Shown here: positions 45,701 through 61,873 of the stretch, in pieces
How the letters are laid out: each line of letters begins with the position of its first letter
How positions within the stretch are numbered: position 1 is the stretch's first letter
Source of the DNA: Patescibacteria group bacterium
Lineage (GTDB): Archaea > Nanobdellota > Nanobdellia > Pacearchaeales > GW2011-AR1
NCBI GenBank assembly: GCA_019428815.1
Contig: JAHYJW010000004.1
Coordinates: 1 to 61,873, forward strand
Length of the DNA stretch: 61,873 nucleotides
Reading direction: 5' to 3'
Position numbers and translations under genes: made by a program
The notes under the pieces: generated by a model
Told to the model about the DNA's origin: nothing
Databases searched by the model: none
Seen by the model: only the letters and a program-made list of their open reading frames with translations

Positions 45701-46708
45701 TTAAGAAGCAGGGTCTCTAACAGCTCCAAATACTATATTCCCGGTACAACTTCCAGCTACGCCCATAGGAACATAAATTCTCCAGAAACTAGGTTTAATG
45801 GCGTTATTAATAACATCATCTGTTCGCTTATTTAAATTAAATTCATAAACATTAACTTCAGTTGTTTTTGTTAAATTTGTATATGTTCCTTCAAATTCTC
45901 CAAAAGAAAGAGCCCCGGGAGTTGATTCAGTTAAATTGAACTTTTCATAGAATATAGAAATAAACCCGATAGCTCCTAGGCTACAATTCATTGCATAATT
46001 ATCCCCAGGAGTCTGCGCATAACCACTTAAAGTCAAATTTAGTTCGACATTACCATAATTAGTTACATTTGCTAATTGTTCATCTGAAACAAAAGTTGCA
46101 TTAACCTGTCCATAATTTATTGAATCTGGAAGCCCAATAGCCAACAGCTCATTAACAGACTGAGTACTACTATTAAAAGTTGTCCAACCCTCTGAATCTG
46201 TAACTAAAACACTTGCATTCCATAATCCTTCGTTGGCATAGTATTCTAAATAAAGGGTACAATTTGATTCAATTTCATACTCGTCCCCATAAGAGGTGTT
46301 TATATCACAACTGATGTTTGTATAATGGATGCTGTTATTATCAGCTCCCCCATAAAGAGAATTAGAATTATCAAAAAATTCTAAAGAAACATTATCTATG
46401 TCTCCTTCCCCATTAAAATCTCTCGCAATAACAATTACTGAAAGAAGAGTCGTAGAATTAGGTGTTAAATCAATAGAATATCCATCATTAATAGTAATAG
46501 ATAATATCTCAGGATAAACATTTCCAATATCCAGTTGAGAATTAACTGTAACATTTTCCCCTATACCCGCAGAAACTCTCGGAAATGAAAATACAAAAAA
46601 AGTACTAATTGCTAAAAATTGTAAAATAGCTAAAGCGAATATCAAGATTCCTAAAAACAAAAATTTCTTACTAATTTTTATTTTTTTATTTTTAAGTTTT
46701 ATTCTCAT
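45701..46708 (-). CDS. Secreted Asn-rich beta protein
   Basis: Signal/TM, many N-x-S/T sequons, C-terminal WRIYVPMGVAGSCTGNIVFGA. Confidence 0.78.
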   Translation of the reverse strand: MRIKLKNKKIKISKKFLFLGILIFALAILQFLAISTFFVFSFPRVSAGIGENVTVNSQLDIGNVYPEILSITINDGYSIDLTPNSTTLLSVIVIARDFNGEGDIDNVSLEFFDNSNSLYGGADNNSIHYTNISCDINTSYGDEYEIESNCTLYLEYYANEGLWNASVLVTDSEGWTTFNSSTQSVNELLAIGLPDSINYGQVNATFVSDEQLANVTNYGNVELNLTLSGYAQTPGDNYAMNCSLGAIGFISIFYEKFNLTESTPGALSFGEFEGTYTNLTKTTEVNVYEFNLNKRTDDVINNAIKPSFWRIYVPMGVAGSCTGNIVFGAVRDPAS

Positions 46709-46794
46709 CTCTTTTTATGAAGCTGCTTAAATTTAAGAAGCTAATTTAATAATGATCTTTTTATTTATAAACTTTACTTTATTTTTAATTTTAA

Positions 46795-47556
46795 TTAGAC
46801 TAATTCTATATAAAGGTAATATGCTGTGGCTCCCTCCCAATCAGAATTTCCTCTTTCAGGAACAATCATCTGAAAATCATATTTATTACCGTCATATCCC
46901 TCAATAGAGTCCTCTAAGATTGTAGTATAGATAAGATTCCCAGGGGAAAGGTAATCAACACCATCAAAAAGAACAACTTCTTGAAAAGATTCGTTTTGCG
47001 AGGTATCGTTTATATAAGTATAAAGAGAAGGGCAGGAATCTGAGAGGATGTGTGTAGTACCTACATAAAAATCATCATGAGTATTCCCCGAAAAAGTAGC
47101 GGTTAAATTATCATTTGGATTTGAATGGTTCAAAATAATATTCTCTGATTCTAAGATATCACTATTTGCACATTTAATCTGGTCCCATTGAACAAGCGTA
47201 TCATTACGTGTTGCATAAACATTTCCAGAGATTGTGGCAAGTTGCCAGTCATATATAGTAGAACCATTACTGTTATCAAGGGTAAATAATCCAAAAACCC
47301 ATCCAACAAATGCTTTCCAACGAGGATTTTGGATTGAAGCAGTGATATTCAAAGAGGAGATATAACCCCCAGATATATTCACCTCTACTCCTGGCAAAGC
47401 TAACTTTGTTTCGTTGCCGGTGATGTTTATTGAATCTGGGCCAGTTTGTTCTGCAACAACAAAAGAAGTAGTTAAAAGAATAACAATTAAAGAGGCTATT
47501 AAAACAATTAGGTTTAAAGGAAAATTTTTCAATTTAATTTTTTTATTTAAATCCAT
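46795..47556 (-). CDS. Secreted surface subunit (paralogue of 47764..48561)
   Basis: WKAFVGWV...IYDW...GNVYAT...YDFQMIVPE...YYLYIELV; GGTGAT RBS. Confidence 0.8.
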   Translation of the reverse strand: MDLNKKIKLKNFPLNLIVLIASLIVILLTTSFVVAEQTGPDSINITGNETKLALPGVEVNISGGYISSLNITASIQNPRWKAFVGWVFGLFTLDNSNGSTIYDWQLATISGNVYATRNDTLVQWDQIKCANSDILESENIILNHSNPNDNLTATFSGNTHDDFYVGTTHILSDSCPSLYTYINDTSQNESFQEVVLFDGVDYLSPGNLIYTTILEDSIEGYDGNKYDFQMIVPERGNSDWEGATAYYLYIELV

Positions 47557-47720
47557 ATCACCACTTTTTAATCATTTATAATAAGTATGTTAAATATATC
47601 TTAATGATTAAGATAATCAGTAAAAAATACTTTATAAATGTTTTTCTGTTTTTGGTATTCTCTTACCTTTATTAAAAATAATTTTAAAAAGAGAATTTAA
47701 AATTTATAAGAATAAAAACT

Positions 47721-47747
47721 GAAAAAGAAAAAGAAAAAGAAAAAGAA
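47721..47747 (-). terminator. (TTTTTC)4 oligo-T tract, probable archaeal terminator
   Basis: GAAAAA x4 on the + strand, just downstream of the 47764 stop codon. Confidence 0.5.
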
Positions 47748-47763
47748 TTTTACACAAAACTAA

Positions 47764-48561
47764 TTATTCTATATCTAAATAGAAATAATAAGTTGTGGTA
47801 TCAATATCGGTTCCCCTCCCATCTTCAAGAACAACCATCTGGAAGTCATGTGAACGGTTATCAAAACCCAATTTCTCAACTTCTAAAAGTGCTGTAAAGA
47901 CTACACTTCTGGAAGTAGGTTCATAAAGAAGTACATTTTGAAAAACCTCTCCTGCTTCATATGTAAGAAGTTTTGCCGTTGGACACAATGCATTAAATTC
48001 TAAGCTCGAGGTATAAAAAACACGATGGTCTTCAGAAATAAATGTATCATTTACACCATCCCCTGCATAACCTGGGATGTTAAACATGTTATGAAGCTGG
48101 GTATAATTAAGACCATTTTGGCTAACTAATCCACTTCCTCCAGGTGTGTTTGGTGTTTCTGCTCCAAATGTTCCGGCAGCAGTAAGATTAAAACACATTA
48201 TATCTAACCATTCTATACCTGTTCCGTTTGTACTTGCATAAACCTGTCCTCTTGGATGTGCTTGACTCCAATTATACATGATATTACTACTTGCATCTGC
48301 TAATCGGATTGTACCGCTAACATTCCCAAAGTAACCTTGCCAGGTCTTAGTAGTTGAAAAACTATGTAGGACTAGTTCTGTTAGATTACCTGCAAAGGCA
48401 TCATGTGATCCTGGAGCTTCGATAGGCGCTGTGGTTGATGAACCCTCTTCTACTCCTGCTCCCTGAATCTCAGCAAAAACAAAAGGAGTCATAGACAAGA
48501 TTAAAACTATACTCGAAACTATCAAAAGAATTCCGTACACACTTTTATTATCTTTTTTCAT
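47764..48561 (-). CDS. Secreted surface subunit, candidate major subunit
   Basis: WQGYFGNVSG...MYNW...GQVYAS...HDFQMVVLE...YYFYLDIE; strong RBS. Confidence 0.8.
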   Translation of the reverse strand: MKKDNKSVYGILLIVSSIVLILSMTPFVFAEIQGAGVEEGSSTTAPIEAPGSHDAFAGNLTELVLHSFSTTKTWQGYFGNVSGTIRLADASSNIMYNWSQAHPRGQVYASTNGTGIEWLDIMCFNLTAAGTFGAETPNTPGGSGLVSQNGLNYTQLHNMFNIPGYAGDGVNDTFISEDHRVFYTSSLEFNALCPTAKLLTYEAGEVFQNVLLYEPTSRSVVFTALLEVEKLGFDNRSHDFQMVVLEDGRGTDIDTTTYYFYLDIE

Positions 48562-48574
48562 ATCACCCCTCCTT
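48562..48574 (-). promoter_or_regulatory. Strong Shine-Dalgarno AAGGAGGGGTGAT
   Basis: Immediately 5' of the ATG at 48561; close to the archaeal GGAGGTGAT consensus. Confidence 0.7.
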
Positions 48575-48744
48575 TTTATTTAGTTTAATTAATAACAAAT
48601 TAGATTAATTAACAATAATCAGTTTATAAATTTTTTGAATTAAGAAGTTTTATTTAACAAACAAAGACAATAACCTGAATATTAAGGAAACTCTCCTTTA
48701 TTAAACAAAAACAAATTTAGAAAAATGGTTAACCCCTATTAATT

Positions 48745-51700
48745 TTAGATTATTTCTGTATAAAAAACAACACTTTTTTTCCCATTACCTCCATATTCTC
48801 TTAAACTCGCGGGGATTCGCATTTCATAATCATAGGTTCCGTAGGTCCCTTCTTGTTGAAGGTTGATTTCAGTTACAAAAACAACATCTTCTTTATCTAA
48901 CCCCCCAAAAGATCCATCGGTGTCTTTAGAATAATCCCATAAAATTCCAGTAAGAAAATTACTACTATTAATAGAAATAGTTATAGGAATATTAAGAATT
49001 TCATTATTGAATACTAACAATGTCGTGGTATTTTTAACCTCTCCCTCTTCTAAATAAAGCTCTGAAATCGAATCCTGAAAATTAGACATATTCAAAAATT
49101 CATCTAGTTTAGAAAAATCCAAAGAAGAAACTCCCCCAGAAACATTTCTTCCTAAAGCTTGAAGATTAAACCAATAAATTAGGGAATCAACATTTGTTGC
49201 ATAAATGTTGCCCCCCTCGTTATTAGTCGCAAACCACCTAATAATCTTTGAACCATTTTGATTTTCTAATTCAAAAGTACTCTCAGAGGTTAGTTCTCCA
49301 TAAAAAAAATGCCAACTACCAACAGTAATTGATTTATTTGCAATGTTGTTTTCTTTTGTCACCTCTTCTATTTCACCGTCCGGATCAATAACCACAAATA
49401 AATTTGAAGTTCCCATAATGGCATTCCACAAAATAGAAAGGGTATAGTTTTCTAAAGCCCCAAAGGGAGCTATGAATAAATCTTCACCAAGCTGAACTCC
49501 GTCTATTTGAGGATCTCCTAAAAAAAATCTGACAGTTACATTTGGTACAGTAACGTTAACTAAGTTATAAAGAACGGCACTTAAATTAACAGTTTCGTTT
49601 TCAACAGGGGAATTAGTATCAAAGGTTATTTCTTCTGAACTTACAAAAAGGTCTGGTAAAGTAACATTAAACATCCTTGTTTCTGACCATTCAAAATTTC
49701 CAGCCTGATCCAAACATGTAACATTCCAAAGATGTTCTCCTAAAGAATAATTTCCAAGAATAACCTCTATAGAAGTCCCATTTTCTAGATTTATCTCTGA
49801 GGCATTTAGAATATTATCTACATAGAGTCTACATCTCAAATTTGGAGAAAAGTTGTCTTGAGCACTAAAATTAAAAAATACTGTTCTCAGGGTATTAGTC
49901 TGATTTAAAGGGTAATTTAAAGAAACAATTGGGGGAGTTAAGTCGATAGTAAAATTAAAAGGTTCTGGTGAGAAGGTATTAAAATCTGGGAAAACATCAG
50001 TACATAAAACAGTCCAATTATGCATTCCCTCTAAAATTCCTTCCACAATAAAAGAGTTATTAATATTTGCAACCAACTCTGGAGAAGAAATTGTTTTATT
50101 AAATCCACCATCTAAATAAAGGGAACAACTCGAAAGACCAATTGCATCTTCTGGAAGATAAATAAATTCAATGGTAGAAGAATTTAAATGTCCGTAATTA
50201 ACAGGTTCAAAAAGAGTTACTTTCGGGGGGGCGTAGATAGTAAAATTTCTTTCCCCACTTAGATTTTGGTTCTTCGCCATATCTCTACATCTTACCTGCC
50301 AAGTGTAGTTTCCATCTGATCTTGAAACATTTAATTGATTCAGGCTTCCGTTGGTTATACTTAAATTTTCATAAATTGGGATTTCATTTAATAAAAAATC
50401 ACAACTTAATGGAAAATCCATGTTATCTATTACTCTAAATTGAAAATTAATTTCGTTCCAATCGAGAGTTTCATTTTTTTCGGGGGATATTAAACTAATT
50501 TCTGGGGGTGCAGTATCTATAGTAAATACCCAAGTTTCTGTATGCCCTTCTAAGTCGGTTTTATCTTTAACTGAAACAAACCAAGAGTAGGTTCCATCTT
50601 CTAAGGTGACTGTAAAATTATTCTCTGCGTCGTTTTCAACAAAGGTTTGATTTGTCATATAAGGTTCACCATTAATCAAAAGCGTTGCATTAGATATATC
50701 GTCATTGTCATCAATCACAAAATAAGTAAGGTTTAGTGTAGAAGAATTATGAAAGGAATTATTTGGAGGAGAAATCAGTTCTACAAGGGGTGCAAAAGAC
50801 AGTATAAAGAATCTTGTTTCTGAAACCTGATAGTTCCCTGCAGGATCTTGACATGTAACATTCCAGTTTTTATTTCCTCCTTCTTCAAAATAAACTTCTC
50901 GGGAAGTAAGTGTTGCATTTGTTGCATTAAAAGAATCAACGACAATGCCATTTACATTTATATCACAAAAAAGATTTTCTGCGAGGTTATCTGTGACTGT
51001 ATAATTAAATTCTACTGTTGAAGAGAAAATATTTTCTTGATCTTCTGGAGAATTAAGGGTTATATTAGGTGACAAAGTATCTACATAAAATTTTCTTTGA
51101 GAAGCAGTTCCCACTAAACCCTGACTATCTGTAACATTAACAGTCCAGTTGTAAATTCCATCACTTAAATTTAAAGTAAAATTATTTATCTCCCCGATGG
51201 TTACAGGAGTTTGGTTTGTCATATAAATTTCCCCATTAATAATTAAAGTAGAATTAACAACTAAATTACTTGAATTATTAACTTGATATTCCAAAAAAAA
51301 TGTTGAGGTATTAAACCAAGTATTATTGGGGGTTATAAGAGTTACATAAGGGGGCATTTCTTCTTCAGTTATTGTAACCTTTCTTGTTGTTTCTCCTATT
51401 TCCAAATCAAAAAGAGAATTTGCAACACATCTTAGATTATTAACAGAGGCTAAGTTACCTCTTAAAGTGAAATTAGTATTTATTAATTCTTGACCAATAT
51501 CCCCTAAATTATGAGGATTTGTTTCTCCTTGTGCTAAAATAAGATTTCCCGAAGAAGAAATATTCTGCCACCCTTGCTGTGAGGTGTTATACTGAAGATA
51601 AACATTAGTCTCAGAACAAAAACCAATAGTACATGAAACTGAACAAGTTGCATTAAACTCTTCACTAGTTGAGATATTAATATCTTCTACAGGATAAATT

Positions 51701-54700
51701 AAATCTGTTTCCAAAAATCCTTCGGTGGTGATATTCAAATCAACCCCAGAATCTGGATCAAAGGGATTATCCCAAATATGGATTAAAGTGGTCTCTCTAC
51801 TAGGATTTCCGTCGGCATTGTAAGCATTTACAAGAAGCATTAAACGATCTTCAGGATTTAAATAAAGGTCTTCGGTTATACAATCTGAAACAGTTTCAGA
51901 AGTATATGCAGAAACAATTTTTCCGCCTGTTCCGTCGTTACCATAAGAACAAATCAGGGTATCTTCGGAAGAGTTAGTTACATAAAGTTTCCAAGTTAAT
52001 CTATATCTATCTATATTAGCTGTGTTTTGGAAAAGAGAGTGAAATGTTACAGGGCTACTTGCATGTATAATCGCACCATTATGGCCCATGTAATAAGAAG
52101 TAGCTTTAACAAGATTAAGAAGTGTCCCGGAATAAGAACTAAAACTTGCAGAATTTGAAGTACCATCTTTAGCACCACTAAGAATTATTTCAGCAAGGGT
52201 ATTTCCCGTAAAATTTTGAGTAAATGTTTCATAAAAAGTTTGGGGAATCATTTCCCGCGAGATATTTATATTAACTATCCAACTCTCGCTCCAACCTATC
52301 AAACCTCCAGCATCAGTACAAGAAACACTCCAGTTATAGGTTCCATTTGAAGCGTAAAGATCAAAGAACAAGGGAGTATCTTTAAAGATTATATAATCTG
52401 TTTGTTTAAGTTCGTCATTTAAGTAAATAGAACAATTTTGAATTGGAGATTCATCTGAAACGTTATATTGAAAAGTTAAGTTGAAATCATTAGTAATTGT
52501 AGATCCATTAGACGGAGAGATTAAATTAACAACTGGCTCTGTAGTATCAAAAGAAAAAGTTCGGTTTGAAAAAGAAAATTCACATCCATTAAAATCGTCA
52601 CAACATTGTATATTCCACAAGTAATTTCCCTGTTGAGAATAAGTTTTATTAAAATAGTTATATTCCCCATTTAGGATTAAGGTTTGATTGGTTTTATTCA
52701 TATGCCAATTTCCTGTAGAATTATCCCAAAGACTACAATTTAGAAAGTTGTCTGAAGAAAGAGGAGTATAATTAAAGATAACATCATAAGAATTTAAAAT
52801 TGCTTGATGAAATGGGGAATTTAAGGTCACAGAAAGATTCCCTAATTCCGGTACTTCATAACTCACATTAAAGAATAAAACGTCAAAAGACCAGGTTCTT
52901 GTTTGCCTGTTATTTGCACTATAAGCTTGAGTTCTTGCCATCGCTCTGGCTCCTGTTGATCCAAAAAAATTAGAACACTGCCAATTAAAATCAGATGTTA
53001 CGTTAATACATTCAAATGAGGTGGGTTCAGAGACATAACAACTTGCAAGAGTATTGCTCGACCAGGTTGTTCCACTATCATTACTAACATCTACATAACA
53101 AGTACTCTCTCCGTCCGGAGCTCCCCAGAACTTATAACAAATTTCAACACTGGTAATGGTTTCACAATCTGTAATCCCGGAATTATAAGAGGCTATTTTT
53201 ATTCCCCCATATTCTCGCGTATTACCAAAACGATAAGATTGGGCGGTTTCGTAATTTGAATCATCACAGCTTACTCTATCCCCTGAAGAAGAACATGAAG
53301 AAGGATAAAATCCCTCACAGTTTAAATCAAAGGTATCCCTATTACCTTGTAAACTCTGTCGTGAACATTCTTGAGCTCTAAGTTCAACGCTTCCCCCAGG
53401 ATATGCGAGAGGGTCAACTATGTAATCAAATTCTAAGGTACCCCCTATAATCTTTAAATCAAAACCATCTTGACTAGAGTCTAAACCAAATAAATAAATT
53501 GAATTTGGGCTATGCTCAGAGATCTCGGTTATCTCTCCTACGATATCTTCCCCACCTAATTCATAAACCTTAATTTGAGGATCTCCAGAGATTATCCTTG
53601 GATAAAATTTAATGTAATTCAAAAAAGATAAATTTTGTTCAAAGATAACTCTCACATATTCTCCATCATTTATGGGGGGGCTCCAGATACCATCTAAGTT
53701 TTTAACTTCCTCATAGATATTTGAAATAAAATTTTTTTCTGAATCTAAATGTTCAGCACTAGCAACCTCAATTATAATCTCAAAGGTTTGGGTTGATAAT
53801 TGTGGGATAACCCATTCAAGATAATCGTAGAACCCGTCCCCATCTTTATCTTGCAAATTAAAACTATCAATAAAAGAATCTTCTTCAACCCAGAAGATTT
53901 TTATTCTAGAGGGATCCCTAATCTTAAAAGAATTTTCTAAAGAGGTAAAAACTAAAACATCTTCGTATAAAGTACTACTTGGACTAGTTGCAGTAATCAT
54001 CTTACCATTAGGAATTTTCTTTTCTTTAGAATAGGGGGCGGGAGTCTCATAAGTGATCCAATATTCTGCGCTAAGATTATCTACATCAAAGGTTACTTGG
54101 ATTTTTTTATTTTCAGAAAAATTTTTCTCTCCTAAAATGTTTAGCCAAGAAAAAAGGTTTTTTATAAAATTTTTTTCTCCTTCAGGGGAGATTACTTCTT
54201 CTTTCATATAAATCTCAAGTTCTTCAGTTTGATTATACAAAATCTTATTTACAAGAATCTTGTCAGATTCTAGGGGGATAAAAAAAGAGAAATTTCCTAA
54301 AAAACTAGGAAACACCTCCTCATTCCAGGATACCGGCTCATCTAGTTTAGTTTTATAATCTAAGGGAGAATTCTGTTCTAAGATAAGGTTACAGGAATTG
54401 TTACAACCTCCTGTTAAAAAAGAACTTTCTTCTTCAATTATTTTTTCCCTAACAGAAAGATACAAATCTTCTCTGCCTTTAGAAGTTTGTAAAGTGAGGG
54501 TATAATTACCTATTTCATTTAAAGGAAAAATAAGAATCTCACTTGAACCTTCTTTTAGATAAGTTGAAGAGGGGGTTTTAACTCTTAAGATAAAATCACC
54601 CTGATCTCTTAAATCTAAACGAAAAAAATCATCAAGATTATAATAAAGGACTGAACCTGCTGAAAAAATCGAAAGATTATTTAAAAGAATTATAAAACAG

Positions 54701-54759
54701 AATAAAAAAAAGACAGATAATGCTAATATCCCCCGTTTGATTAACCTCTTTTTATTCAT
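48745..54759 (-). CDS. Giant surface protein/adhesin (2004 aa): Ig-like repeats, CARDB-like domain, shared C-terminal domain
   Basis: Signal/TM; repeated P-V-L-I-S-P...Y-x-W-x-V-x-C-x-D modules; PDLFVS...VVIDPDGEIEE...NN; ends YDYEMRIP...VVFYTEII. Confidence 0.85.
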   Translation of the reverse strand: MNKKRLIKRGILALSVFFLFCFIILLNNLSIFSAGSVLYYNLDDFFRLDLRDQGDFILRVKTPSSTYLKEGSSEILIFPLNEIGNYTLTLQTSKGREDLYLSVREKIIEEESSFLTGGCNNSCNLILEQNSPLDYKTKLDEPVSWNEEVFPSFLGNFSFFIPLESDKILVNKILYNQTEELEIYMKEEVISPEGEKNFIKNLFSWLNILGEKNFSENKKIQVTFDVDNLSAEYWITYETPAPYSKEKKIPNGKMITATSPSSTLYEDVLVFTSLENSFKIRDPSRIKIFWVEEDSFIDSFNLQDKDGDGFYDYLEWVIPQLSTQTFEIIIEVASAEHLDSEKNFISNIYEEVKNLDGIWSPPINDGEYVRVIFEQNLSFLNYIKFYPRIISGDPQIKVYELGGEDIVGEITEISEHSPNSIYLFGLDSSQDGFDLKIIGGTLEFDYIVDPLAYPGGSVELRAQECSRQSLQGNRDTFDLNCEGFYPSSCSSSGDRVSCDDSNYETAQSYRFGNTREYGGIKIASYNSGITDCETITSVEICYKFWGAPDGESTCYVDVSNDSGTTWSSNTLASCYVSEPTSFECINVTSDFNWQCSNFFGSTGARAMARTQAYSANNRQTRTWSFDVLFFNVSYEVPELGNLSVTLNSPFHQAILNSYDVIFNYTPLSSDNFLNCSLWDNSTGNWHMNKTNQTLILNGEYNYFNKTYSQQGNYLWNIQCCDDFNGCEFSFSNRTFSFDTTEPVVNLISPSNGSTITNDFNLTFQYNVSDESPIQNCSIYLNDELKQTDYIIFKDTPLFFDLYASNGTYNWSVSCTDAGGLIGWSESWIVNINISREMIPQTFYETFTQNFTGNTLAEIILSGAKDGTSNSASFSSYSGTLLNLVKATSYYMGHNGAIIHASSPVTFHSLFQNTANIDRYRLTWKLYVTNSSEDTLICSYGNDGTGGKIVSAYTSETVSDCITEDLYLNPEDRLMLLVNAYNADGNPSRETTLIHIWDNPFDPDSGVDLNITTEGFLETDLIYPVEDINISTSEEFNATCSVSCTIGFCSETNVYLQYNTSQQGWQNISSSGNLILAQGETNPHNLGDIGQELINTNFTLRGNLASVNNLRCVANSLFDLEIGETTRKVTITEEEMPPYVTLITPNNTWFNTSTFFLEYQVNNSSNLVVNSTLIINGEIYMTNQTPVTIGEINNFTLNLSDGIYNWTVNVTDSQGLVGTASQRKFYVDTLSPNITLNSPEDQENIFSSTVEFNYTVTDNLAENLFCDINVNGIVVDSFNATNATLTSREVYFEEGGNKNWNVTCQDPAGNYQVSETRFFILSFAPLVELISPPNNSFHNSSTLNLTYFVIDDNDDISNATLLINGEPYMTNQTFVENDAENNFTVTLEDGTYSWFVSVKDKTDLEGHTETWVFTIDTAPPEISLISPEKNETLDWNEINFQFRVIDNMDFPLSCDFLLNEIPIYENLSITNGSLNQLNVSRSDGNYTWQVRCRDMAKNQNLSGERNFTIYAPPKVTLFEPVNYGHLNSSTIEFIYLPEDAIGLSSCSLYLDGGFNKTISSPELVANINNSFIVEGILEGMHNWTVLCTDVFPDFNTFSPEPFNFTIDLTPPIVSLNYPLNQTNTLRTVFFNFSAQDNFSPNLRCRLYVDNILNASEINLENGTSIEVILGNYSLGEHLWNVTCLDQAGNFEWSETRMFNVTLPDLFVSSEEITFDTNSPVENETVNLSAVLYNLVNVTVPNVTVRFFLGDPQIDGVQLGEDLFIAPFGALENYTLSILWNAIMGTSNLFVVIDPDGEIEEVTKENNIANKSITVGSWHFFYGELTSESTFELENQNGSKIIRWFATNNEGGNIYATNVDSLIYWFNLQALGRNVSGGVSSLDFSKLDEFLNMSNFQDSISELYLEEGEVKNTTTLLVFNNEILNIPITISINSSNFLTGILWDYSKDTDGSFGGLDKEDVVFVTEINLQQEGTYGTYDYEMRIPASLREYGGNGKKSVVFYTEII

Positions 54760-54895
54760 TTTTGTATTTTTAATCTGATAATTCCATTTAATTAAATTTA
54801 TTCTTTAAATTGCCCTATTTTTTTGAAATTCAAAGGTTTATGAAACATCCCCTCTTAAAATATCCCCCAAATATTCAAGATTTTAACAACAGATT

Positions 54896-56992
54896 TTAAG
54901 AGTCTTTTAGGAACTTATGTAAATCCTCTAAAGTTCCATATACTTTCTTTTTTGATGAGTATGGAAGAGATTTATATTTCTCTGATATTTCAAGATAAGT
55001 TTTTTCTGATTCTTCCTTTTTTCCTTTAGAAGAAAAAGATCTTGCTTCATTTGATTTTTGAATAATCTCTTCAACTAACTTAAGAGACCGATTTCTCAAT
55101 TTAATAAATCCTAAATAGAAAACTGCGATTAAAATCAAAAGGACTACTAATGAAACCCCCATAGAAATTTCATCTAAATCTTCTAGTACTAAAAACCCGG
55201 TTATTCCGGTTCCAGATGTTTTAGTTTCAGGAGGAAGGTAAACAATCCCAAATAAAATTTCTTCTAAAGAATCTAATTCTACTTCTTTTTCTATAAAGTA
55301 ACTTATTTCCTTAGTATCTGCAGAAAAAGAAATAACCAATTCTTTAATAGTTTGATAATTTTTATTTTTAATAGACAATTCGGAGATACTTTCAACAACA
55401 CCCCTTGGGAGAACTTCTAAAAAGATAAAACTATCAGTTTTATTTAAGGTTCCTCCAATTTCTCTAATTAAGAGAAATACGTCTTTATCTACGCCCCCCA
55501 TTTGTTGAATATTTATATTAATAGCTCTTGTTTTTACAGAGATTCCTCTTTCTGTTATTATTGCACTAGACTTTCTAATCATCCTGCTATCAAAATTATC
55601 AAGAGCATAGGGAATTATCTCTAGGTATAATCTCTCAATAGTTTCTTCACTAAAAACTTCATCAATTACTCTTTCTTCTTGAATAAAGATATTTTCAGGG
55701 AAATTTTTTCTAAGATTAGCTAATTTAATCCTAGAAGAACTTAACTTATTTTCTAATTCATTCTCATTTAGATTTTGAGTTTTGAATAATTCTATTTCAT
55801 TTTTAATAGAGTTCATATTTGAAAAAGTCCTATCAATTTCTTGGAAGATACCTAATCTCTCAACAATCTCCTTTTTTTCATTTTCAGAATTTTTAAAAGA
55901 AGACTCTATACTTTTCATCTCTGAATAAATGTTTTCTAATTCAATGAGAAGACTTTCTACACGGGGAATTAAAGAAAGAGAAAGGCCTCCTTCGTTAGGA
56001 TTAATGTCTTCTCTTAAAACAGTTACCTCAATTGTTCTAGAAAGATCCCCTATATTTCCTGCATCGTCGACAGCGGAAATTTTATAATAATAAGTTTTAC
56101 CTTTTTCGACAAAGGCATCTAAAAAAGATTTTTTTTCAACAAATCTATAAAAATCGGATTTATCTAATGTAGGGGATTCAGACCTATAAATATTAAATCC
56201 TAAGACGTCTTCTTCTAAATACCACTCCAAAAAAGCTTCGCCTTTTCTTCCTTCGCTTCTAATACTCTGAATAGTGGAAGGCTTTAAAGTATCAATAAGA
56301 AAAACATTTCCAGAGGATATTTTAGTTCCAATTCTTCCCTCTAAGTCTGTTCCTTTAAAAGAAAAAGAACCAACAGCATTGCCCAAATTTCCTGGGATAA
56401 TTAGATAACTAAACCAATTTTGACCAGAGCCAGAAAAAGGAAGAGGGATATAATCGACCCCATTAAAAGAGTATTTGATTTCAGGAACTTCTGAAAGTGA
56501 ACGAGAGGTAGTTAACATTACTTTATAACTCCCCCCCTTCAAAGGCGGGGTTTCTAAAAAAGAGATTCTTGCAGAAACTAAAGGATTAACATAAAAATTT
56601 AATTCTAATTCTGGACTAAAACTGTTTTCATTATCATAAGCACAAATAACATAAAGAGAAAAAATGCCCTGATCTAATCCAAAAAAAGACTTTTCGTGTA
56701 AAAGTCCGTAATTTTCAAAGTTGCCCTCCATTGAGTTGTAATTTTTTCCAGAAGAAGAGTCATATTTGCAAAGGGATTCTTCATTTGTTAAGATTCTTAT
56801 CATCGCATTATTCCATTTCCATCCTCCAAGAGGAATTGAACTTCCAAAATCGTAGGCAAGCGGATCCTCTAGAGAAACATTAAAACTATACTCTAAAACA
56901 GGAGGAGATGATGCAAAAAGATTTTGTGATAAAAAAAGGATTATAAAAAACGAAAGAAATGCCTTAAGTAAAATACGAGATTTATTTTTCAT
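54896..56992 (-). CDS. Membrane-anchored Ig/FN3 + coiled-coil surface protein
   Basis: Signal peptide; FN3 (FNIYRS...TYYYKISAVD); helical stalk; ITG + TM + cytoplasmic tail. Confidence 0.8.
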   Translation of the reverse strand: MKNKSRILLKAFLSFFIILFLSQNLFASSPPVLEYSFNVSLEDPLAYDFGSSIPLGGWKWNNAMIRILTNEESLCKYDSSSGKNYNSMEGNFENYGLLHEKSFFGLDQGIFSLYVICAYDNENSFSPELELNFYVNPLVSARISFLETPPLKGGSYKVMLTTSRSLSEVPEIKYSFNGVDYIPLPFSGSGQNWFSYLIIPGNLGNAVGSFSFKGTDLEGRIGTKISSGNVFLIDTLKPSTIQSIRSEGRKGEAFLEWYLEEDVLGFNIYRSESPTLDKSDFYRFVEKKSFLDAFVEKGKTYYYKISAVDDAGNIGDLSRTIEVTVLREDINPNEGGLSLSLIPRVESLLIELENIYSEMKSIESSFKNSENEKKEIVERLGIFQEIDRTFSNMNSIKNEIELFKTQNLNENELENKLSSSRIKLANLRKNFPENIFIQEERVIDEVFSEETIERLYLEIIPYALDNFDSRMIRKSSAIITERGISVKTRAININIQQMGGVDKDVFLLIREIGGTLNKTDSFIFLEVLPRGVVESISELSIKNKNYQTIKELVISFSADTKEISYFIEKEVELDSLEEILFGIVYLPPETKTSGTGITGFLVLEDLDEISMGVSLVVLLILIAVFYLGFIKLRNRSLKLVEEIIQKSNEARSFSSKGKKEESEKTYLEISEKYKSLPYSSKKKVYGTLEDLHKFLKDS

Positions 56993-58196
56993 GTTTCTTT
57001 AATAAAAATTCAAATTTTTTTAGGTACCTCCTTTTTTCTTTTCGGATACTATAAATTAAAAAGATTAAGGTAAGTATTGCGATTCCATAAATAAAGAGGG
57101 TTAAAAATGCGGGATCAACTCCCCTTTTTTCAACATTCATGATCGCCGCAGATTCAAAGGTCTTTTTTTTATCATAAAAAACCCTCCCCGTAATTATGTG
57201 TCTGCCTGGATCTTCGGGAGTAAAGAAAAAAGTAAAGTTCTCAGTTCCACTTTCGGGGACGATGATTTCCTCGCTTTCTAGAAGCCTAATTATTCTTCCT
57301 CCGAGAGATATTTCACCCTTGAATCTAGCTACTACATTTTTTTCTCCGATATTTTCAAATTCTATTTCAATTGGGACTGTCTCTCTCACTTCTGTCCAAA
57401 GTGTAGTATAAATTCCTTTTATAATCCCCTTTGCTCTTAACTCTCCAGGCTCAAGAATATCAAATGTTAAGAAATCGGAGGCTAAACATTCAATTACTGA
57501 AAATTCTGCCCAATATTGCATCTTATCGAGATAACGACTGGGAAATTTAAAAGATAATTTTTTTTCTTGTGTAGGAGTGATCTCTTCCCCCCGAATAGAT
57601 GATGTATCAATCAAGTTTAACATTTCATTATCCCATATCTCGATTTCTACTAAAGGTTTAAGGCGAATATTTCCTTTATTCAAAACATCAACACTAAAAA
57701 CAATGTCGTCCCCTTGTTCAACAGATTCTACATAAAAATTTCTTGCTCGACAATCAACATATTCAATGTCTGTTACTTCTACAAGGATAGCAACATCAAG
57801 AACAGTTTTAACAAAGCCTGTTGCCATTCCGTCTTCAGTAGGGCTGTCAATAGCATCTACAAAAAGTCTAAGATATCCGGTATAATTTCCGTTAGGCATG
57901 TCTTCTGGAGGAGAAACAGAAACAGTGATCAATTGAGAATTCTCTTTGGAAATCTCAAATTCTGATTGAGAAAAATTAAGCCAACTTGAAATCTGGCCTC
58001 GGGGTTCTAAAGAAACCATTACTAATTCATCAGAACCAAAAGTAACCCGTATATTCCTTTCAGCATATCCCCCCCTTAAGACTCTTTCATAATTTAAATT
58101 TCCGGGACTAACCCCCAAGATAGCTGCACTTGTAGTTTCTACTAAAATAATCAGTATCAAAAAACTAAATAAAATTCTAATTTTCATTTTTTTCAT
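56982..58196 (-). CDS. C-terminally anchored tandem Ig protein, DUF916/DUF3324- or PapD-like
   Basis: Signal peptide, LGVSPG, VSVSPPEDMPNGNYTG, LNKGNI, FENIGE, TM + basic tail. Confidence 0.7.
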   Translation of the reverse strand: MKKMKIRILFSFLILIILVETTSAAILGVSPGNLNYERVLRGGYAERNIRVTFGSDELVMVSLEPRGQISSWLNFSQSEFEISKENSQLITVSVSPPEDMPNGNYTGYLRLFVDAIDSPTEDGMATGFVKTVLDVAILVEVTDIEYVDCRARNFYVESVEQGDDIVFSVDVLNKGNIRLKPLVEIEIWDNEMLNLIDTSSIRGEEITPTQEKKLSFKFPSRYLDKMQYWAEFSVIECLASDFLTFDILEPGELRAKGIIKGIYTTLWTEVRETVPIEIEFENIGEKNVVARFKGEISLGGRIIRLLESEEIIVPESGTENFTFFFTPEDPGRHIITGRVFYDKKKTFESAAIMNVEKRGVDPAFLTLFIYGIAILTLIFLIYSIRKEKRRYLKKFEFLLKKHEK

Positions 58197-58359
58197 TATT
58201 TTTTTTGTCTAATATCCAGTAAATAACAATATTCCTGATTATCTCAGCCTTAGTATTTCCCAGAATTCCTTTATACTTCTCTATTTGTCCAATTTGATGA
58301 GAACTAAATGTTACGGGGATTTTTTCTTTCTTAGACACTTTTGGGGAACCTTTAGACAT
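58177..58359 (-). CDS. Ribbon-helix-helix (CopG-like) regulator
   Basis: IPVTFS beta-strand, two helices with GNTKAEIIRNIV; first gene of the operon. Confidence 0.75.
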   Translation of the reverse strand: MSKGSPKVSKKEKIPVTFSSHQIGQIEKYKGILGNTKAEIIRNIVIYWILDKKNNEKNEN

Positions 58360-58687: not shown

Positions 58688-60787
58688 ATGGTTAAAAAAG
58701 GGGGATTATTCATCTTTTTATCAATAGTCCTAATTGGAATTTCATTTATCACTTTTACTTCCCCAGATGAAGTAGAAACATTATTAGAAGTTCCTGTCTC
58801 TTCACCTCTAGTTTTTGAAGTACCTATACCAAATCAAATTTGGGCCACAAACACAAATCATACAAATGCCTTGAATCTTAACAATCATTTTACCAACTAT
58901 ATGGGAACAAATACTACTTTCAATGTAACTGAAGTAGAAAATATAACCATCCTCATAGATGAAGAAGGTTTTGTTTCATTTTACCCGGATTTAAATTTTG
59001 AGGGAATTAGAGAAGTTGTATTCCACGCACAAGCTGCAGGTATTGTGGGATTATACAATGCAAGTAGTAACTTTGTTCAATTAGAAGTTCTTTTAGATGA
59101 AGAATCACCAAAATGGAGTAATCCTCAAAAGAGTAGAACAGACATATTTCAAAGTGACTTTATCAGATTTTATACAAACTGGACAGATAACCTAGCATTA
59201 GATAGTTTTCTTTTTTCGATAAACCAGGGTTCAGGATGGGTTAATGGATCAAGAGTTTATTTTTCAGGGGTTTCTAATTTTTCTAAACAAACAATCCAGA
59301 TAAGTGCTCCTGGAGGTACTGGGGTTAGTTGGGCATTTTATGCTTGGGACACCTCGGGAAATATAAACCGGACAAGTATTCAAACCTTTACTGTAGAAAT
59401 TACCGAAACTCCAACAGAACCAGGCCCTGGAGAAGAAGTTATTATAGATCCAGAAGAAATAATTTCAGAATTTTCAGTTACCCCCGGAATAATCGAATTA
59501 AAAATGAAACAGGGTGAAGAGATTACCCGATTTTTAAGAATTCAAAATGAGGGAAGAGAATCTTCTAACTTTAAAATTGTTCTAAACGGACTAGAGGAGT
59601 TTTTGGTTTTAGATAAAACAGAAGTAACAATCCCTGGGAGAACTTCTCAGACCATTACCTTAGATTTTAAGGTTGGCGAAAGAACATTTCCGGATTTATA
59701 TTTTGGGTATATTGACATTATCGGAGATAGTAAAACCAGAAGAGTGCCCATAATTCTAGAAATAAATCCCTTAGAAATAGACTTTGAGGTAGGTGTTCAG
59801 GTTAAAAATAAAGACAAACGAGTTTTACCGGGAAAAGAGGTAGAAATTGAAATAAGGATCACAAATCTAGGAGATTATGCAAGGGAAAATGGAACTTTTT
59901 ATTATGCAATAAAGGATGTTTACGGGAAGACACTTGACTTTTCTCAAGAAGAATTTGAATTGAAAGATGAAGAATTCTTTATAAGAACCTTAAAAATTCC
60001 TACTGATACCCTAAAAGGGTATTATATAGTTTATGTTAGAGGAAATTTAGAAAAAGAGACTTCCATTGCAACAGATAATTTTGAAGTAGGAGCAAGATTT
60101 GATGTTGCAGGTTTTATAAAATTAAACTTTATTTTGATTTTAATAATCTTGATCTCTTTAATAACTGCTCTTTTGATTATTCGGAGCCGCAGGAATAGAG
60201 AGAGACTAAAAATCTTAAACTTATATCTTAAAGTAAATGAGTTAAAAGAACTAATAAACCAAAAACAGTTAGATAAAGCAATAGAGTATTACATAAAAAT
60301 TAAATCCGAATATGGTGAACCGGTTTCAGAGAAGATTTTGGATAACAAAGAAAAGCTTAAAGAAGAAATGCAAAGATTAGCAGATAGTTTTGATAAAAAA
60401 AATTCTGGATTAAAAGAGATTTCTAAAGAGGTTGAAGATAATGACAAAGAAAAAAAAGAGGGTGAGGAGATTGAAGAAAAAAATCTAGAAAAGAAAGGTT
60501 CAATTAAAAGGGAGATAGTCAAAGAAAAAATGAACAAAGAAGAAAATATTAAAGATGAGCATTTAATGAATAAAAAAGAAAATGGCGAGGAATTAAAGGA
60601 AGAGAAAGAAAATAAGATAGAGGAAGAGGTAGTTAAGAAACGAGATGGATTAAATGAAAACAAAAAATCTCAGAATAAGATTAAAAATCAAAAATTAAAG
60701 AAAAGTTTGAACAAACCTAAAAAAAGAGGTAATGAAACGAAAAAAAATTCTTTAAAGACTGATAAACCAAAAACAAAGAAAAAATAA
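58688..60787 (+). CDS. Membrane-anchored multi-Ig surface protein with a K/E-rich cytoplasmic tail
   Basis: Signal/TM, cadherin-like FYPDLNFEGIREV, several Ig domains, TM near aa 480, charged tail. Confidence 0.8.
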   Translation: MVKKGGLFIFLSIVLIGISFITFTSPDEVETLLEVPVSSPLVFEVPIPNQIWATNTNHTNALNLNNHFTNYMGTNTTFNVTEVENITILIDEEGFVSFYPDLNFEGIREVVFHAQAAGIVGLYNASSNFVQLEVLLDEESPKWSNPQKSRTDIFQSDFIRFYTNWTDNLALDSFLFSINQGSGWVNGSRVYFSGVSNFSKQTIQISAPGGTGVSWAFYAWDTSGNINRTSIQTFTVEITETPTEPGPGEEVIIDPEEIISEFSVTPGIIELKMKQGEEITRFLRIQNEGRESSNFKIVLNGLEEFLVLDKTEVTIPGRTSQTITLDFKVGERTFPDLYFGYIDIIGDSKTRRVPIILEINPLEIDFEVGVQVKNKDKRVLPGKEVEIEIRITNLGDYARENGTFYYAIKDVYGKTLDFSQEEFELKDEEFFIRTLKIPTDTLKGYYIVYVRGNLEKETSIATDNFEVGARFDVAGFIKLNFILILIILISLITALLIIRSRRNRERLKILNLYLKVNELKELINQKQLDKAIEYYIKIKSEYGEPVSEKILDNKEKLKEEMQRLADSFDKKNSGLKEISKEVEDNDKEKKEGEEIEEKNLEKKGSIKREIVKEKMNKEENIKDEHLMNKKENGEELKEEKENKIEEEVVKKRDGLNENKKSQNKIKNQKLKKSLNKPKKRGNETKKNSLKTDKPKTKKK

Positions 60788-60791: not shown

Positions 60792-61873
60792 ATGGATTTA
60801 CTAAAAAAAGGGTTGATCCTAATTTTTGTGGTGTCTATCCTTATTTCAAGTAGTTTTATAACTTCTGCAGAAATGGAAGACTCAGAATCTGCTTTTGGAA
60901 ATCCTATCGTCACAGAACAATATGAAATCTCAAGGAGCTGGGTTAAAAGAATAATTTCTGAAGGGCGAATTTTACAGGATAATATAATTATAAAAAACTT
61001 AGGAAGTTCATCAATGAGTGTTTCTTTTATGATAATGGGAGGGGTTGAAGAGATAATTAGCCTTTCTGCAGATGGATTAATCATTGAGCCCTATAATTAT
61101 GAAGAACTAACCTTCCAGATAGTAGGACTAAACGAAGGGGAATACACCGGACATATTTCTTTAACGGGGGGAGTATCTCAAGAAATTCCGGTTTTAATAA
61201 AAGTAAGGGATAAAATAGAAGGGACCCGCTTTTTAATTGAGATAAACTCCTTAAAAGAATCTTACCTCATGGGGGAAGAACTTTTATTTTTGTTGAATAT
61301 AAGAAAATTAATTCAAGATTCCAAAGAAGACATCATAGAAGCAGAGTATTATCTAAAAGGAGGAGGAGAATCTTTTTTTCTTGAGGAAGAGACCTTAAAC
61401 GTTTCGTATTCTACGCAAATAAAAAAAACATTTGAGATACCAAAAAATGTTACAGAAGGAGTTTATAACATTGAATTGATTATGAAGTTAGAAGACGAAA
61501 CAGTTGTTTCAAAATCTCAACTTAAAATAATTTTACCCTTTTGGCTTAAAAAATTTTTGGGAATTCCGTTATGGATAATTATCACCGCTCTAGGGATTGT
61601 TGCTTTAGGGATTGGGGGAACTTTAATCGCGAAAAAAATTCTTGAAAAAAAGAAGAAATATAAAATGAAATTAGAATTTAAAACAATTCCTAAAGCTGGA
61701 GAAAGGTCATTCTATTTAGGAAAGATCGCGGAAACAAATACAAATACTTATTACAATATGGACGATCTTACAACACACATGGTTGTTGCGGGAGCAACAG
61801 GAGGAGGTAAAAGTATCTCTGCCCAGGTTTTTGTTGAGGAGGCATTAAAAAAGAATATTGCTGTTGTAGTTTT
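60792..61873 (+). CDS. Ig-domain/TM/HerA (DUF87)-like ATPase fusion, truncated by the window end
   Basis: Manual ORF MDLLKKGLILIFVV...; Ig-like region, TM PLWIIITALGIVALGIGG, then FYLGKIAE...THMVVAGATGGGKS in frame. Confidence 0.85.
   Translation, partial: MDLLKKGLILIFVVSILISSSFITSAEMEDSESAFGNPIVTEQYEISRSWVKRIISEGRILQDNIIIKNLGSSSMSVSFMIMGGVEEIISLSADGLIIEPYNYEELTFQIVGLNEGEYTGHISLTGGVSQEIPVLIKVRDKIEGTRFLIEINSLKESYLMGEELLFLLNIRKLIQDSKEDIIEAEYYLKGGGESFFLEEETLNVSYSTQIKKTFEIPKNVTEGVYNIELIMKLEDETVVSKSQLKIILPFWLKKFLGIPLWIIITALGIVALGIGGTLIAKKILEKKKKYKMKLEFKTIPKAGERSFYLGKIAETNTNTYYNMDDLTTHMVVAGATGGGKSISAQVFVEEALKKNIAVVV

Follow-up and report, generated by a model that had tools for sequence, protein, structure and literature searches.

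The 61,873-nt stretch of DNA analysed here (positions 1 to 61,873, hereafter the window) carries at 45701-58359 a seven-gene locus that we interpret, with moderate confidence, as encoding a donor-strand fibre of DPANN archaea, resembling the WxL and chaperone-usher pili as a functional analogue and not as a member of their families. The locus would encode a Sec-exported, probably N-glycosylated surface appendage assembled by donor-strand complementation, in which two paralogous subunits (B and A) build the chain and a giant immunoglobulin (Ig)-repeat protein that ends in the same domain occupies the distal tip. A membrane FtsK/HerA-type ATPase, to which the fibre is possibly coupled, appears to belong with the appendage to one larger, conserved system. 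This wider system and an ATPase with a subunit-like ectodomain are the new elements; a fibre-subunit domain linked to an FtsK/HerA ATPase has no precedent in the literature searched. The support for a fibre is wholly computational and starts from homology relations, neighbourhood conservation, membrane topology and fold similarities, all of which were observed. Pacearchaeota and Woesearchaeota are abundant, uncultivated and presumed to be episymbionts. For the question of how they attach to partner cells the locus offers a testable parts list: a pair of subunits, a tip adhesin, an anchored factor of PapD-like fold, a cap or anchor candidate, and an ATPase.

The subunit family and its shared domain

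The seven co-oriented genes described in the first-pass annotation of this DNA were all recovered in our listing of open reading frames (ORFs), at the same coordinates and on the minus strand. Three of them share one domain. Subunit B (265 aa; 47764..48561, minus strand), predicted to be the chief component of the fibre, consists of a Sec-type signal peptide, an N-terminal extension of ca. 40 residues and a beta-sandwich body. Subunit A (253 aa; 46795..47556, minus strand), a second subunit type, is its divergent paralogue, as follows from a BLASTP match with E 2e-21 and 26% identity across nearly the full length. The C-terminus of the giant protein (2004 aa; 48745..54759, minus strand) in turn matches A at E 4e-5 (residues 1809-1873) and B at E 0.006. 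When a hidden Markov model (HMM) of the family, built from 41 members, was scanned against every ORF of the window, it matched these three only: B at 2e-102, A at 1.5e-67 and the giant C-terminus at 6.8e-5, the next ORF scoring 0.15. Profile alignment (hhalign) of the 41 subunits with the C-terminal 230 residues of 18 giants encoded in related loci (96.1%, E 3.2e-9) spans 173 columns, from the W-x-G-Y motif (B residue 74) to the last residue, and the motifs named in the first-pass annotation are invariant or nearly invariant columns in both alignments. The claim made there that B, A and the adhesin C-terminus have a domain in common is confirmed. The body of the subunits has a conserved end, Y-Y-F-Y-x-[DE]-[IL]-E-COOH. 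Two cysteines are invariant in the family and six N-x-S/T sequons are conserved in at least 35 of the 41 members, which fits an extracellular N-glycoprotein.

The HMM check proposed for the shared domain retrieved no known family from Pfam, NCBIfam or the PDB sequences. B and A, like the p335 and p698 proteins discussed below, belong to no family in Pfam, NCBIfam or PHROGs, and neither B, A nor the giant protein matches the Pfam WxL family at E<=0.1. A profile search of the B family against the PDB sequences gave no chain at E<=1; in such searches with B, p335 and Ig404 (see below) the best values were 0.2 (a capsid protein) and 0.035 (cohesin), nothing among them being meaningful. An Atlas search with B returned only its own archaeal family. 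A viral or mobile origin of B was considered and rejected, with no match in PHROGs or BFVD.

By a word-indexed search 353 relatives were retrieved at E<=1e-3; they are all unnamed or 'hypothetical' and without a Pfam domain, with Candidatus Pacearchaeota, Nanobdellota and an 'archaeon' bin as named sources. An exhaustive profile search of 1.84 billion cluster representatives gave 1214 matches at E<=1e-3, of which 843 also pass E<=1e-10 and 380 pass E<=1e-30; in some of the 1214, proteins 443-1635 residues long, the module is C-terminal. Every named source record of the family is from DPANN or an unclassified archaeon, and a confirmed fibre would provide these 1214 clusters, now of 'hypothetical' proteins, with a function. 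Relatives are encoded in 306 stretches of one-genome-per-species collections; the 78 loci that were kept all come from Pacearchaeota, Woesearchaeota, Nanoarchaeota, one 'Diapherotrites' bin and unclassified archaeal bins. Among 301 sampled genomes of the window's phylum, 83 contain the family (tallies for this sample include the window's own genome, and that for B the unpublished genome G243, without which it is 82 of 300). All 83 belong to the window's class, many with 5-12 matches, and in the window's own taxonomic family the 13 other genomes, the only one of its genus among them, all lack B. A third copy, 74% identical to B, lies on contig C8 of the window's genome (645 kb in 9 contigs, 85% complete); outside this genome the nearest homologues have only 49-64% identity. 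Such a patchy distribution suggests gain by transfer or repeated loss.

Subunit model, proposed fibre polarity and partner proteins

The AlphaFold2 (AF2) model of B, with a predicted local distance difference test score (pLDDT) of 81.3, has a body that is all-beta and starts at about residue 63; the signal helix comes first, and behind it residues ca. 30-60 are of low confidence. The earlier statement that there is no class III signal agrees with the mature protein being all-beta in this model, the signal-peptide type having been judged by reading only. The Foldseek comparison of the subunit that had been suggested matched no solved fold: at E<=1e-3 nothing was found in the PDB (best E 0.23) or among viral models (best E 0.034), and the TasA fibre and CanA fall within the noise (E 0.27 and 0.58). 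With VIA, the best of 48,161 chains reached Z 3.9 and none Z 5 or more; the overlaps were partial, FN3/Ig-like, and of 70-90 residues only. As modelled, the fold of B is not assignable to any pilin class.

Complex prediction was done with three copies of mature B (residues 31-265) and the family alignment, in three runs with three controls. The model of subunit oligomers, another of the checks proposed at the outset, predicts an interface in which an N-terminal strand enters a groove, and it passes with a median interaction prediction score from aligned errors (ipSAE) of 0.60 (runs 0.14, 0.60 and 0.70) vs 0.00 for the best control, a partner pLDDT of at least 68 and at least 39% of contacts shared by the runs. 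In calibration the pass mark was reached by 20 of 30 proteins whose solved form is a pair of one chain and by 1 of 23 solved as single chains, counts that carry over only approximately to the present case. In the best run, one copy contacts residues 70-100, 244-249 and 255-265 of the next through its own residues 43-71. The predicted donor contacts run parallel along strand 73-87 (74 with 57, 78 with 62, 81 with 65, and 85 with 69-71) and antiparallel to the last strand (258 with 55, 260 with 53). Such strand geometry is that of a complementing Ig G-strand. The same position has been described for WxL and chaperone-usher pili (bioRxiv 10.64898/2026.10.17.759780). Three motifs are common to the whole family (W-x-G-Y, D-F-[EQ]-M and, at the C-terminus, Y-F-Y-x-E), and all three lie inside the interface stretches. 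The predicted donor segment of B (residues ca. 43-71; 48349..48435, minus strand) holds a nearly invariant A-G-N-V-T-E motif, or more fully A-x-A-G-N-V-T-E (A55, A57, G58, N59, V60, T61, E62), and has a pLDDT of ca. 50 in the monomer model. Low confidence in the monomer combined with conservation is as expected for a strand that folds only in trans.

While B and A keep both donor and acceptor parts, the giant protein has only the latter. It is a secreted protein in which Pfam recognises Big_7 (1.1e-13), Big_13 (5.1e-11) and CARDB (1.7e-6), and its subunit-like domain (residues ca. 1810-2004; 48748..49332, minus strand) follows directly on the CARDB domain. In the hhalign comparison subunit columns 71-267 align to the giant C-termini, and the preceding donor segment, ca. 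40 residues long in the mature subunits, is without counterpart. A match to the subunit HMM at E<=1e-4 is present in 13 of the 36 C-termini of ORFs of more than 1000 aa that are best matched by the giant protein (window included); several others of these ORFs reach the end of their locus, and their true C-termini lie outside. The LP.TG motif does not occur in the eight locus proteins. With a groove and no donor segment the giant protein could only be the first unit of a chain, and most likely it lies at the distal tip, as the predicted adhesin. FimH of type 1 pili has the same tip position and a pilin-like C-terminal domain without donor strand. The same place is taken by the predicted ElrA in WxL pili (bioRxiv 10.64898/2026.10.17.759780).

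From the models and from comparative genomics we infer polymerisation, polarity, chaperone function and coupling to the ATPase as follows. In mature B and A (ca. 235 residues) the N-terminal extension would insert into a groove of the preceding subunit that is formed by its first long strand and its two C-terminal strands. The giant protein, having no extension, would accept a strand only and so come to lie at the tip. Ig404 may act as a membrane-bound chaperone or nucleator, like ElrE of the WxL pili or the Pam chaperones of bacteria of the candidate phyla radiation (CPR), and p335 and p698 are candidate cap and anchor proteins. A long form of the ATPase, with an extracellular subunit-like domain, may be the cell-proximal anchor.

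The genes are transcribed in the order 60-aa ORF, Ig404, p698, giant protein, B, A and p335. A hydropathy scan found one hydrophobic segment each in B, A, the giant protein and p335. It is N-terminal in all four, as expected from the earlier remark that they have no C-terminal anchor. Ig404 and p698 possess an extra C-proximal transmembrane (TM) segment, at residues 360-385 and 605-634, respectively. Ig404 (404 aa; 56982..58196, minus strand) has a signal peptide, three beta-sandwich domains and the C-terminal TM helix; in its AF2 model (pLDDT 86.9) the first domain is PapD-like/ASH and the third CARDB-like. Foldseek ranks tandem ASH/Hydin-type arrays first. By VIA, domain 1 (residues ca. 22-144) superposes on the pilus chaperones FimC (Z 12.3, root-mean-square deviation (rmsd) 2.4, 112 residues of 26-144), Caf1M (Z 12.5-12.8) and SfaE, CfaA, SafB and CsuC (Z 11.9-12.2), the rmsd being 2.1-3.3 across 102-119 residues. 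Domains 1-2 give Z 13.2 over 206 residues with the WxL-interacting protein 9i1y of Enterococcus faecium, but at an rmsd of 13.1. Among 11 members of the Ig404 family, Pfam detects ASH in 5 (best 6.7e-6), CARDB in 9, DUF3324 (PF11797) in one at E 0.17, and PapD_N and DUF916 (PF06030) in none. The modelled fold fits a membrane-bound chaperone or nucleator, for which Ig404 is the best candidate.

The p698 gene (698 aa; 54896..56992, minus strand) overlaps the end of the Ig404 gene and is present in all 11 loci that have Ig404. Its product is secreted and beta-rich, with the TM segment at 605-634 and a short cytoplasmic tail, and is a candidate membrane anchor or base; it has no Pfam match, and the label 'FN3/coiled-coil' given to it earlier came from a reading of the sequence alone. 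The third gene, after B-A, is p335 (335 aa; 45701..46708, minus strand), which encodes a secreted two-domain beta-sandwich protein, putatively a cap, adaptor or terminator. It has no detectable homology to B, and the idea that it is a divergent subunit was rejected, since hhalign aligned them (47.7%) over 16 columns at the signal-peptide end only. An Atlas search with p335 returned unnamed archaeal structural kin and DUF11/CARDB-like clusters, as well as WxL at 0.75, which is chance level. Downstream of p335 are genes for an acetyl-CoA synthetase and a CyaB-like cyclase, neither of which is present in any of the 78 related loci. The 60-aa ORF (58177..58359, minus strand), which overlaps the start of the Ig404 gene, is putatively a small DNA-binding protein; its earlier designation as a ribbon-helix-helix (RHH) regulator found no support in Pfam, NCBIfam or the PDB sequences, where it has no match, and a homologue occurs in one of the 78 related loci (L069), in front of Ig404. 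The G+C content is ca. 30% across the DNA.

Conserved neighbourhood, membrane ATPase and alternative readings

ORFs were called in the 78 loci and labelled with iterated HMMs, and the 37 loci of at least 18 kb were counted separately. Two main arrangements were found. In the first, a large protein of 900-3300 aa precedes B, A and p335: two B-family genes and p335 are consecutive in 21 of the 78 loci, and in 18 of these 21 an ORF of at least 900 aa comes before them, so that the proposed test of gene-cluster conservation turned out in favour of a conserved unit. In loci with the giant-B-A-p335 order the first subunit gene is best matched by B of the window and the second by A. The second arrangement begins with an ATPase of 1120-1270 aa, followed by a 107-aa helical protein (s107), a coiled-coil protein of ca. 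285 aa (cc285), B, a winged helix-turn-helix (wHTH) protein of ca. 205 aa and a second B-family gene. It continues with optional Ig404, p698, a protein of ca. 105 aa and p335, and with a polytopic M50B-like protease, a secreted protein of ca. 455 aa and a giant protein. Counted over all loci and over the long ones, respectively, p335 occurs in 39/78 and 21/37, an ORF of at least 900 aa in 44/78 and 30/37, the ATPase domain in 28/78 and 20/37, the M50B-like protease in 27/78 and 15/37, the wHTH protein in 33/78 and 16/37, p698 in 18/78 and 9/37, and Ig404 in 11/78 and 5/37. At least one partner gene is found in 70 of the 78 loci; of the 74 with a family match, 43 have two family ORFs and 2 have three.

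Two side observations concern these neighbourhoods. In L055, L062, L068, L074 and L078 module-bearing proteins of ca. 520-590 aa lie in another neighbourhood without partner genes, which forms a third context of the domain. The polytopic M50B-like proteins, which recur beside subunit genes, have an H-E-F-G-H motif and weak similarity to Peptidase_M50B (L079, on own contig C8, 3541-4125, E 1.1e-5, 25.7 bits vs a cut-off of 26; L025, 15869-16954, 5.2e-4) and could be a dedicated subunit-processing protease.

The limits first given to the locus were too narrow, as two divergent genes at its side, up699 and the ATPase gene, share the conserved neighbourhood. The up699 protein (699 aa; 58688..60787, plus strand) has a signal peptide, Ig-like ectodomains, a TM segment at 469-502 and a Lys/Glu-rich cytoplasmic tail, and shows weak similarity to Ig404 (E 0.003). 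It is a partner of the short-form ATPase: the two genes adjoin in L038, L043, L047, L056, L069 and L072, and the pair stands beside B-A-p335 in L038, L056 and L069. The short-form membrane FtsK/HerA-type ATPase of the window (60792..61871, plus strand), truncated by the contig end, comprises a signal peptide, an Ig-like ectodomain of ca. 250 aa, a TM segment and a visible Walker A motif (G-A-T-G-G-G-K-S). It matches Pfam DUF87 at 2e-7 (31.8 bits vs a cut-off of 23.2; DUF87 reaches 48.2 bits in L025) and the 1243-aa ATPase of L025 at E 1e-46, and PDB chains of HerA match the ATPase at 2e-7 to 1e-3. The best NCBIfam matches of the ATPase are HerA (8e-11) and CedD (4.5e-8), followed by TraD, VirB4 and TraC, at scores far below the cut-offs (40.9 bits vs 800 for HerA, 32.2 vs 600 for CedD, 21.8 vs 366 for TraD). 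Judged by these matches the ATPase is an unclassified member of the FtsK/HerA superfamily. The ATPase was recounted with its C-terminal domain alone because an iterated HMM of the membrane-proximal part pulled in up699 and Ig404 ORFs, and the ATPaseN HMM, which drifted onto generic Ig repeats (141 matches), was excluded from the labels. Homology of Ig404 to the ATPase ectodomain was not established (hhalign 32.8%), and a reading of a 113-aa helical protein as similar to type VII secretion components was dropped, as it has no Pfam match.

A long-form ATPase (E 3e-200) is also encoded in the window's genome, at one end of contig C6. The start of contig C8 lies within a cc285 homologue, after which come an Ig/TM protein of 612 aa, the third copy of B and an M50B-like protein of 194 aa (H-E-F-G-H). 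Contigs C4 (right end), C6 (left end) and C8 (left end) all break inside genes of the system, namely two ATPase paralogues and the coiled-coil gene; probably the assembly collapsed on the repeated ATPase domain. At L081 (own contig C7, 70-858 and 937-2928) a third DUF87 ATPase of this genome (663 aa) adjoins a von Willebrand A protein (VWA_2 3.4e-15) beside FtsY, in a different gene context, and has 38% identity to the ATPase domain of the system.

In the long forms the ATPase begins with a domain like that of the subunits. B-like motifs are seen at the N-termini of 18 aligned ATPases, and hhalign of the subunit and ATPase profiles (95.7%, E 1e-8, 177 columns) places subunit columns 51-266 on ATPase residues 56-246, including the donor-type motif A-G-x-I-T-E-L-N-I. 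A phmmer search with this N-terminal domain found all 17 long forms among the related loci and the C6 copy, together with two small ORFs (E 4e-7 and 2e-6), the first of them labelled B family. The domain follows an N-terminal hydrophobic segment in which a small-x-small cleavage site is not obvious and which may be an uncleaved signal anchor.

In the same 301 genomes the C-terminal ATPase domain (E<=1e-30) was found in 53, and it occurs together with the B family in 39 vs 14.6 expected by chance; related genomes are not independent, and the nominal P-value overstates this link. Of the 14 ATPase-positive genomes without a B match, 9 have the domain inside an open frame of 2059-9416 residues. 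In L085 a complete 2041-aa protein consists of a hydrophobic segment (26-49), Ig-like repeats, a TM segment (1557-1584) and the ATPase (1599-1970), and the frames of at least 3380-3506 aa in L083, L084 and L086 have the same order of parts. No B domain was found in these four fused loci. By 'Rosetta stone' logic, in which fused and split forms are compared, the pattern suggests that B-type modules connect adhesin and ATPase where these are separate proteins. The frames of 9416 (G077:C10) and 8055 (G039:C4) residues with an ATPase domain are among the largest in this analysis, and in G277 and G093 the ATPase-domain match contains in-frame stop codons.

A further step would be to regard the fibre as the extracellular arm of an ATP-powered machine and not as a passive pilus, an extension that we put forward tentatively and hold to be somewhat unlikely. 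The ATPase would be a hexamer in which each protomer displays either a giant adhesin (fused form) or a subunit domain with donor strand (long form), and a motor in the cytoplasm, with its coiled-coil partners, would be connected both mechanically and topologically to the adhesin-tipped fibres. In these host-dependent archaea, attachment to a partner cell could then be coupled to pulling, to controlled assembly or release of fibres, or to passage of DNA or other macromolecules through the ring of TM helices. Judged by the literature searched, no donor-strand fibre connected to a motor ATPase would have been described before.

Several observations weigh against a fibre system as outlined. Polymerisation comes from one structure prediction, of which one run in three failed (0.14) and in which the interface between copies 1 and 2 is barely formed. 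The subunit fold matched no pilin or other solved fold, and an 'incomplete Ig fold' was not established. Non-chaperone ASH proteins (Hydin, CEP192, OCRL) score as high as or above the chaperones with Ig404. Ig404 moreover lies near subunit genes (within 10 kb) only in the few loci counted above and cannot be a universal cis-encoded chaperone. Subunit-domain genes have no partner at all in 8 of the 78 loci, five of them being the ca. 520-590-aa fusion proteins. The ATPase of the window itself is a short form without subunit-like domain, the long form being on contig C6, and at E<=1e-30 an ATPase match is lacking in 44 of the 83 genomes that have B.

Some of this evidence would also suit a docking module, a reading that we consider unlikely, in which the shared domain ties giant adhesins to a membrane base by one or a few strand-swapped contacts and no long fibre is made. 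The base could be the ectodomain of the long-form ATPase, p698 or an envelope layer, and B and A would be adaptors or competitors. A role of this kind agrees with the location of the domain at the extreme C-terminus of otherwise unanchored giants and at the N-terminus of a membrane ATPase, with its connector-like absence where ATPase and adhesin are fused (the four loci and all 14 ATPase-only genomes), and with only one of the two possible trimer interfaces being confidently formed. On the other side, free-standing subunit genes are numerous (5-12 matches in many genomes, two family ORFs in 43 of 74 loci), which suits a polymer better. B and A have both retained donor and acceptor parts, and the analogous small WxL proteins polymerise (bioRxiv 10.64898/2026.10.17.759780).

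The wider neighbourhood could alternatively point to a translocation machine comparable to conjugation, Ced or type VII systems, with the membrane FtsK/HerA ATPase, s107 and cc285 as its core and with B, A, p335 and the adhesins serving only to hold or recognise a partner cell; this we judge quite improbable. The nature of the best NCBIfam matches, the consecutive order ATPase-s107-cc285 in 23 of the 78 loci, the 14 of 53 ATPase-positive genomes without B, and the position of a cc285 homologue as the next gene after the fused giant-ATPase in two of four loci (L084 and L085) speak for it. Those matches, however, lie far under their cut-offs, as stated (40.9 bits vs 800). No polytopic channel or VirB6/CedA-like partner was recognised, the Pfam scan of neighbours giving only the M50B-like protease and the wHTH regulator; the Sec signal peptides of B, A and p335 make a dedicated exporter unnecessary; and the 44 B-positive genomes without ATPase at the threshold count against it as well. 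Very improbable is a surface coat in two dimensions, with the B family as part of an S-layer-like lattice or a sheath instead of a linear fibre: these are secreted, sequon-rich beta-sandwich proteins with predicted self-association and one weak structural match to the archaeal S-layer protein 7ptp (Z 3.8), but that score is within noise, B and A have no membrane anchor or envelope-binding part recognised by Pfam or NCBIfam, the predicted contact is head-to-tail, and the patchy family (83/301 genomes of the phylum, 0/13 in the own family) is unlike an essential envelope layer.

Two other genes of the window deserve mention. A 770-aa protein (25476-27788, minus strand) has a T2SSE (PilB/FlaI-type) ATPase domain (Pfam 4e-13) and adjoins a 727-aa ORF (23222-25405, minus strand) without Pfam match, so the genome seems to carry a separate type IV filament system. 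At 12843-14120 (minus strand) a 425-aa protein contains an SLT lytic transglycosylase domain (Pfam 7.8e-10); a murein-cleaving domain of this sort is notable in an archaeon, and its target could be a bacterial partner or prey.

Comparison with known systems

Like CedD of the Ced system and the TraD, VirB4 and TraB ATPases, the ATPase described here is a membrane-tethered P-loop ATPase of the FtsK/HerA superfamily encoded beside genes for surface structures, and EssC of type VII systems is a comparable membrane ATPase of this superfamily. Unlike these transfer-system ATPases it has a large ectodomain (Ig-like, CarboxypepD_reg-like). Its long forms begin with a fibre-subunit-like domain, and in other lineages the ectodomain is an adhesin of 2000-9400 aa. 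The literature search gave no paper on the B family or its system in DPANN, nor on a donor-strand fibre tied to an FtsK/HerA ATPase; PMC4158269, in the passages available, deals with other systems. From type IV filaments the appendage differs in that mature B is all-beta in its model after the signal helix, and the only T2SSE ATPase of the window is 20 kb away, at 25476-27788.

Donor-strand filaments are known in archaea. Those described include the threads of Sulfolobus (PMC9715654), and the literature on such filaments extends to cannulae, Tat-dependent bundling pili and tafi, and bacterial TasA (PMC12518558, PMC12337348, PMC11821415, PMC9674648). With threads, cannulae and Tat-dependent pili as archaeal examples, the first-pass annotation went too far in knowing of no described archaeal equivalent. 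Sulfolobus threads are likewise archaeal, Sec-exported and glycosylated, and donate an N-terminal tail to the neighbouring subunit; their assembly machinery is described as unknown, and a neighbouring paralogue has been proposed as cap (PMC9715654). No relation by sequence to the B family emerged for these filaments from the PDB search at E<=1. In the available passages on these archaeal filaments no giant tip adhesin with a subunit domain, PapD-like anchored protein or FtsK/HerA ATPase is reported, in contrast to the present system.

With the chaperone-usher pili (Fim, Pap, Caf1, Csu) the locus shares a protein, Ig404, whose first domain superposes on domain 1 of their chaperones, whereas it differs from them in having no PapD_N match, a three-domain and membrane-anchored chaperone candidate, and a subunit fold unlike any pilin. 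No usher family is found among the Pfam matches of the locus or of the neighbouring proteins, and to our knowledge archaea have no outer membrane. The strictly conserved C-terminus of the subunits recalls the way in which the C-terminus of a pilin is anchored in the chaperone cleft (bioRxiv 10.64898/2026.10.17.759780).

Closer in organisation are two systems reported in 2026, the WxL and the Pam pili, both of which use membrane-anchored chaperones and no usher, according to the passages available (bioRxiv 10.64898/2026.10.17.759780; PMC13278184). The Pam pili belong to Ca. Mycosynbacter amalyticus of the CPR, also an ultrasmall episymbiont with donor-strand pilins. Their two-domain chaperones have a C-terminal TM helix, no dedicated trans-envelope machinery is proposed in those passages, and a membrane-tethered terminator has been proposed (PMC13278184). 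They are bacterial, unlike the present system, and their pilins have an Ig-like C-terminal domain and a linker donor strand; the likeness is one of description only, and the passages on Pam mention no ATPase (PMC13278184). Confirmation of the fibre of the locus would add the Archaea to the CPR (Pam) and the Bacillota (WxL) as a group in which donor-strand assembly is guided by a chaperone and dispenses with an usher, and would point either to deep ancestry or to the same solution having been reached repeatedly in monoderm or ultrasmall cells.

The pili made by WxL clusters are of the donor-strand type, with a chaperone anchored in the membrane and an adhesin at the tip that bears the subunit module, and in a sample of one proteome per genus of 81 phyla the WxL system was found only in Bacillota, as the preprint's available passages state (bioRxiv 10.64898/2026.10.17.759780). 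The differences from our locus are several. PF13731 was found in none of 41 family members at E<=10 and nowhere in the whole window genome at E<=0.01, while a Lactococcus lactis control matched; there is no DUF916 match, and PF11797 appears in 1 of 11 Ig404 members at E 0.17. The locus has no LPxTG motif or sortase anchor. Its donor region is ca. 40 residues long vs ca. 15 in WxL, Ig404 has three domains, and the host is an archaeon and not one of the Bacillota. The locus has links to an FtsK/HerA ATPase, to an M50B-like protease and to proteins with coiled coils, whereas the word 'ATPase' is absent from the WxL preprint. The likenesses are in the plan of the system. As in the WxL (Elr) pilus of Enterococcus faecalis, a large tip adhesin carries at its C-terminus the same module (bioRxiv 10.64898/2026.10.17.759780) of which a small protein essentially consists. 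A chaperone-fold protein is held by a C-terminal membrane helix without outer-membrane usher, and the predicted donor strand of B is antiparallel to the last strand of the acceptor, as for ElrD. Of the parallel with WxL and chaperone-usher loci that the first-pass annotation had drawn, membership by sequence in WxL, DUF916/DUF3324 or PapD_N was not borne out, and what stands is the layout with a shared module, the donor-strand model and the PapD-like fold of Ig404.

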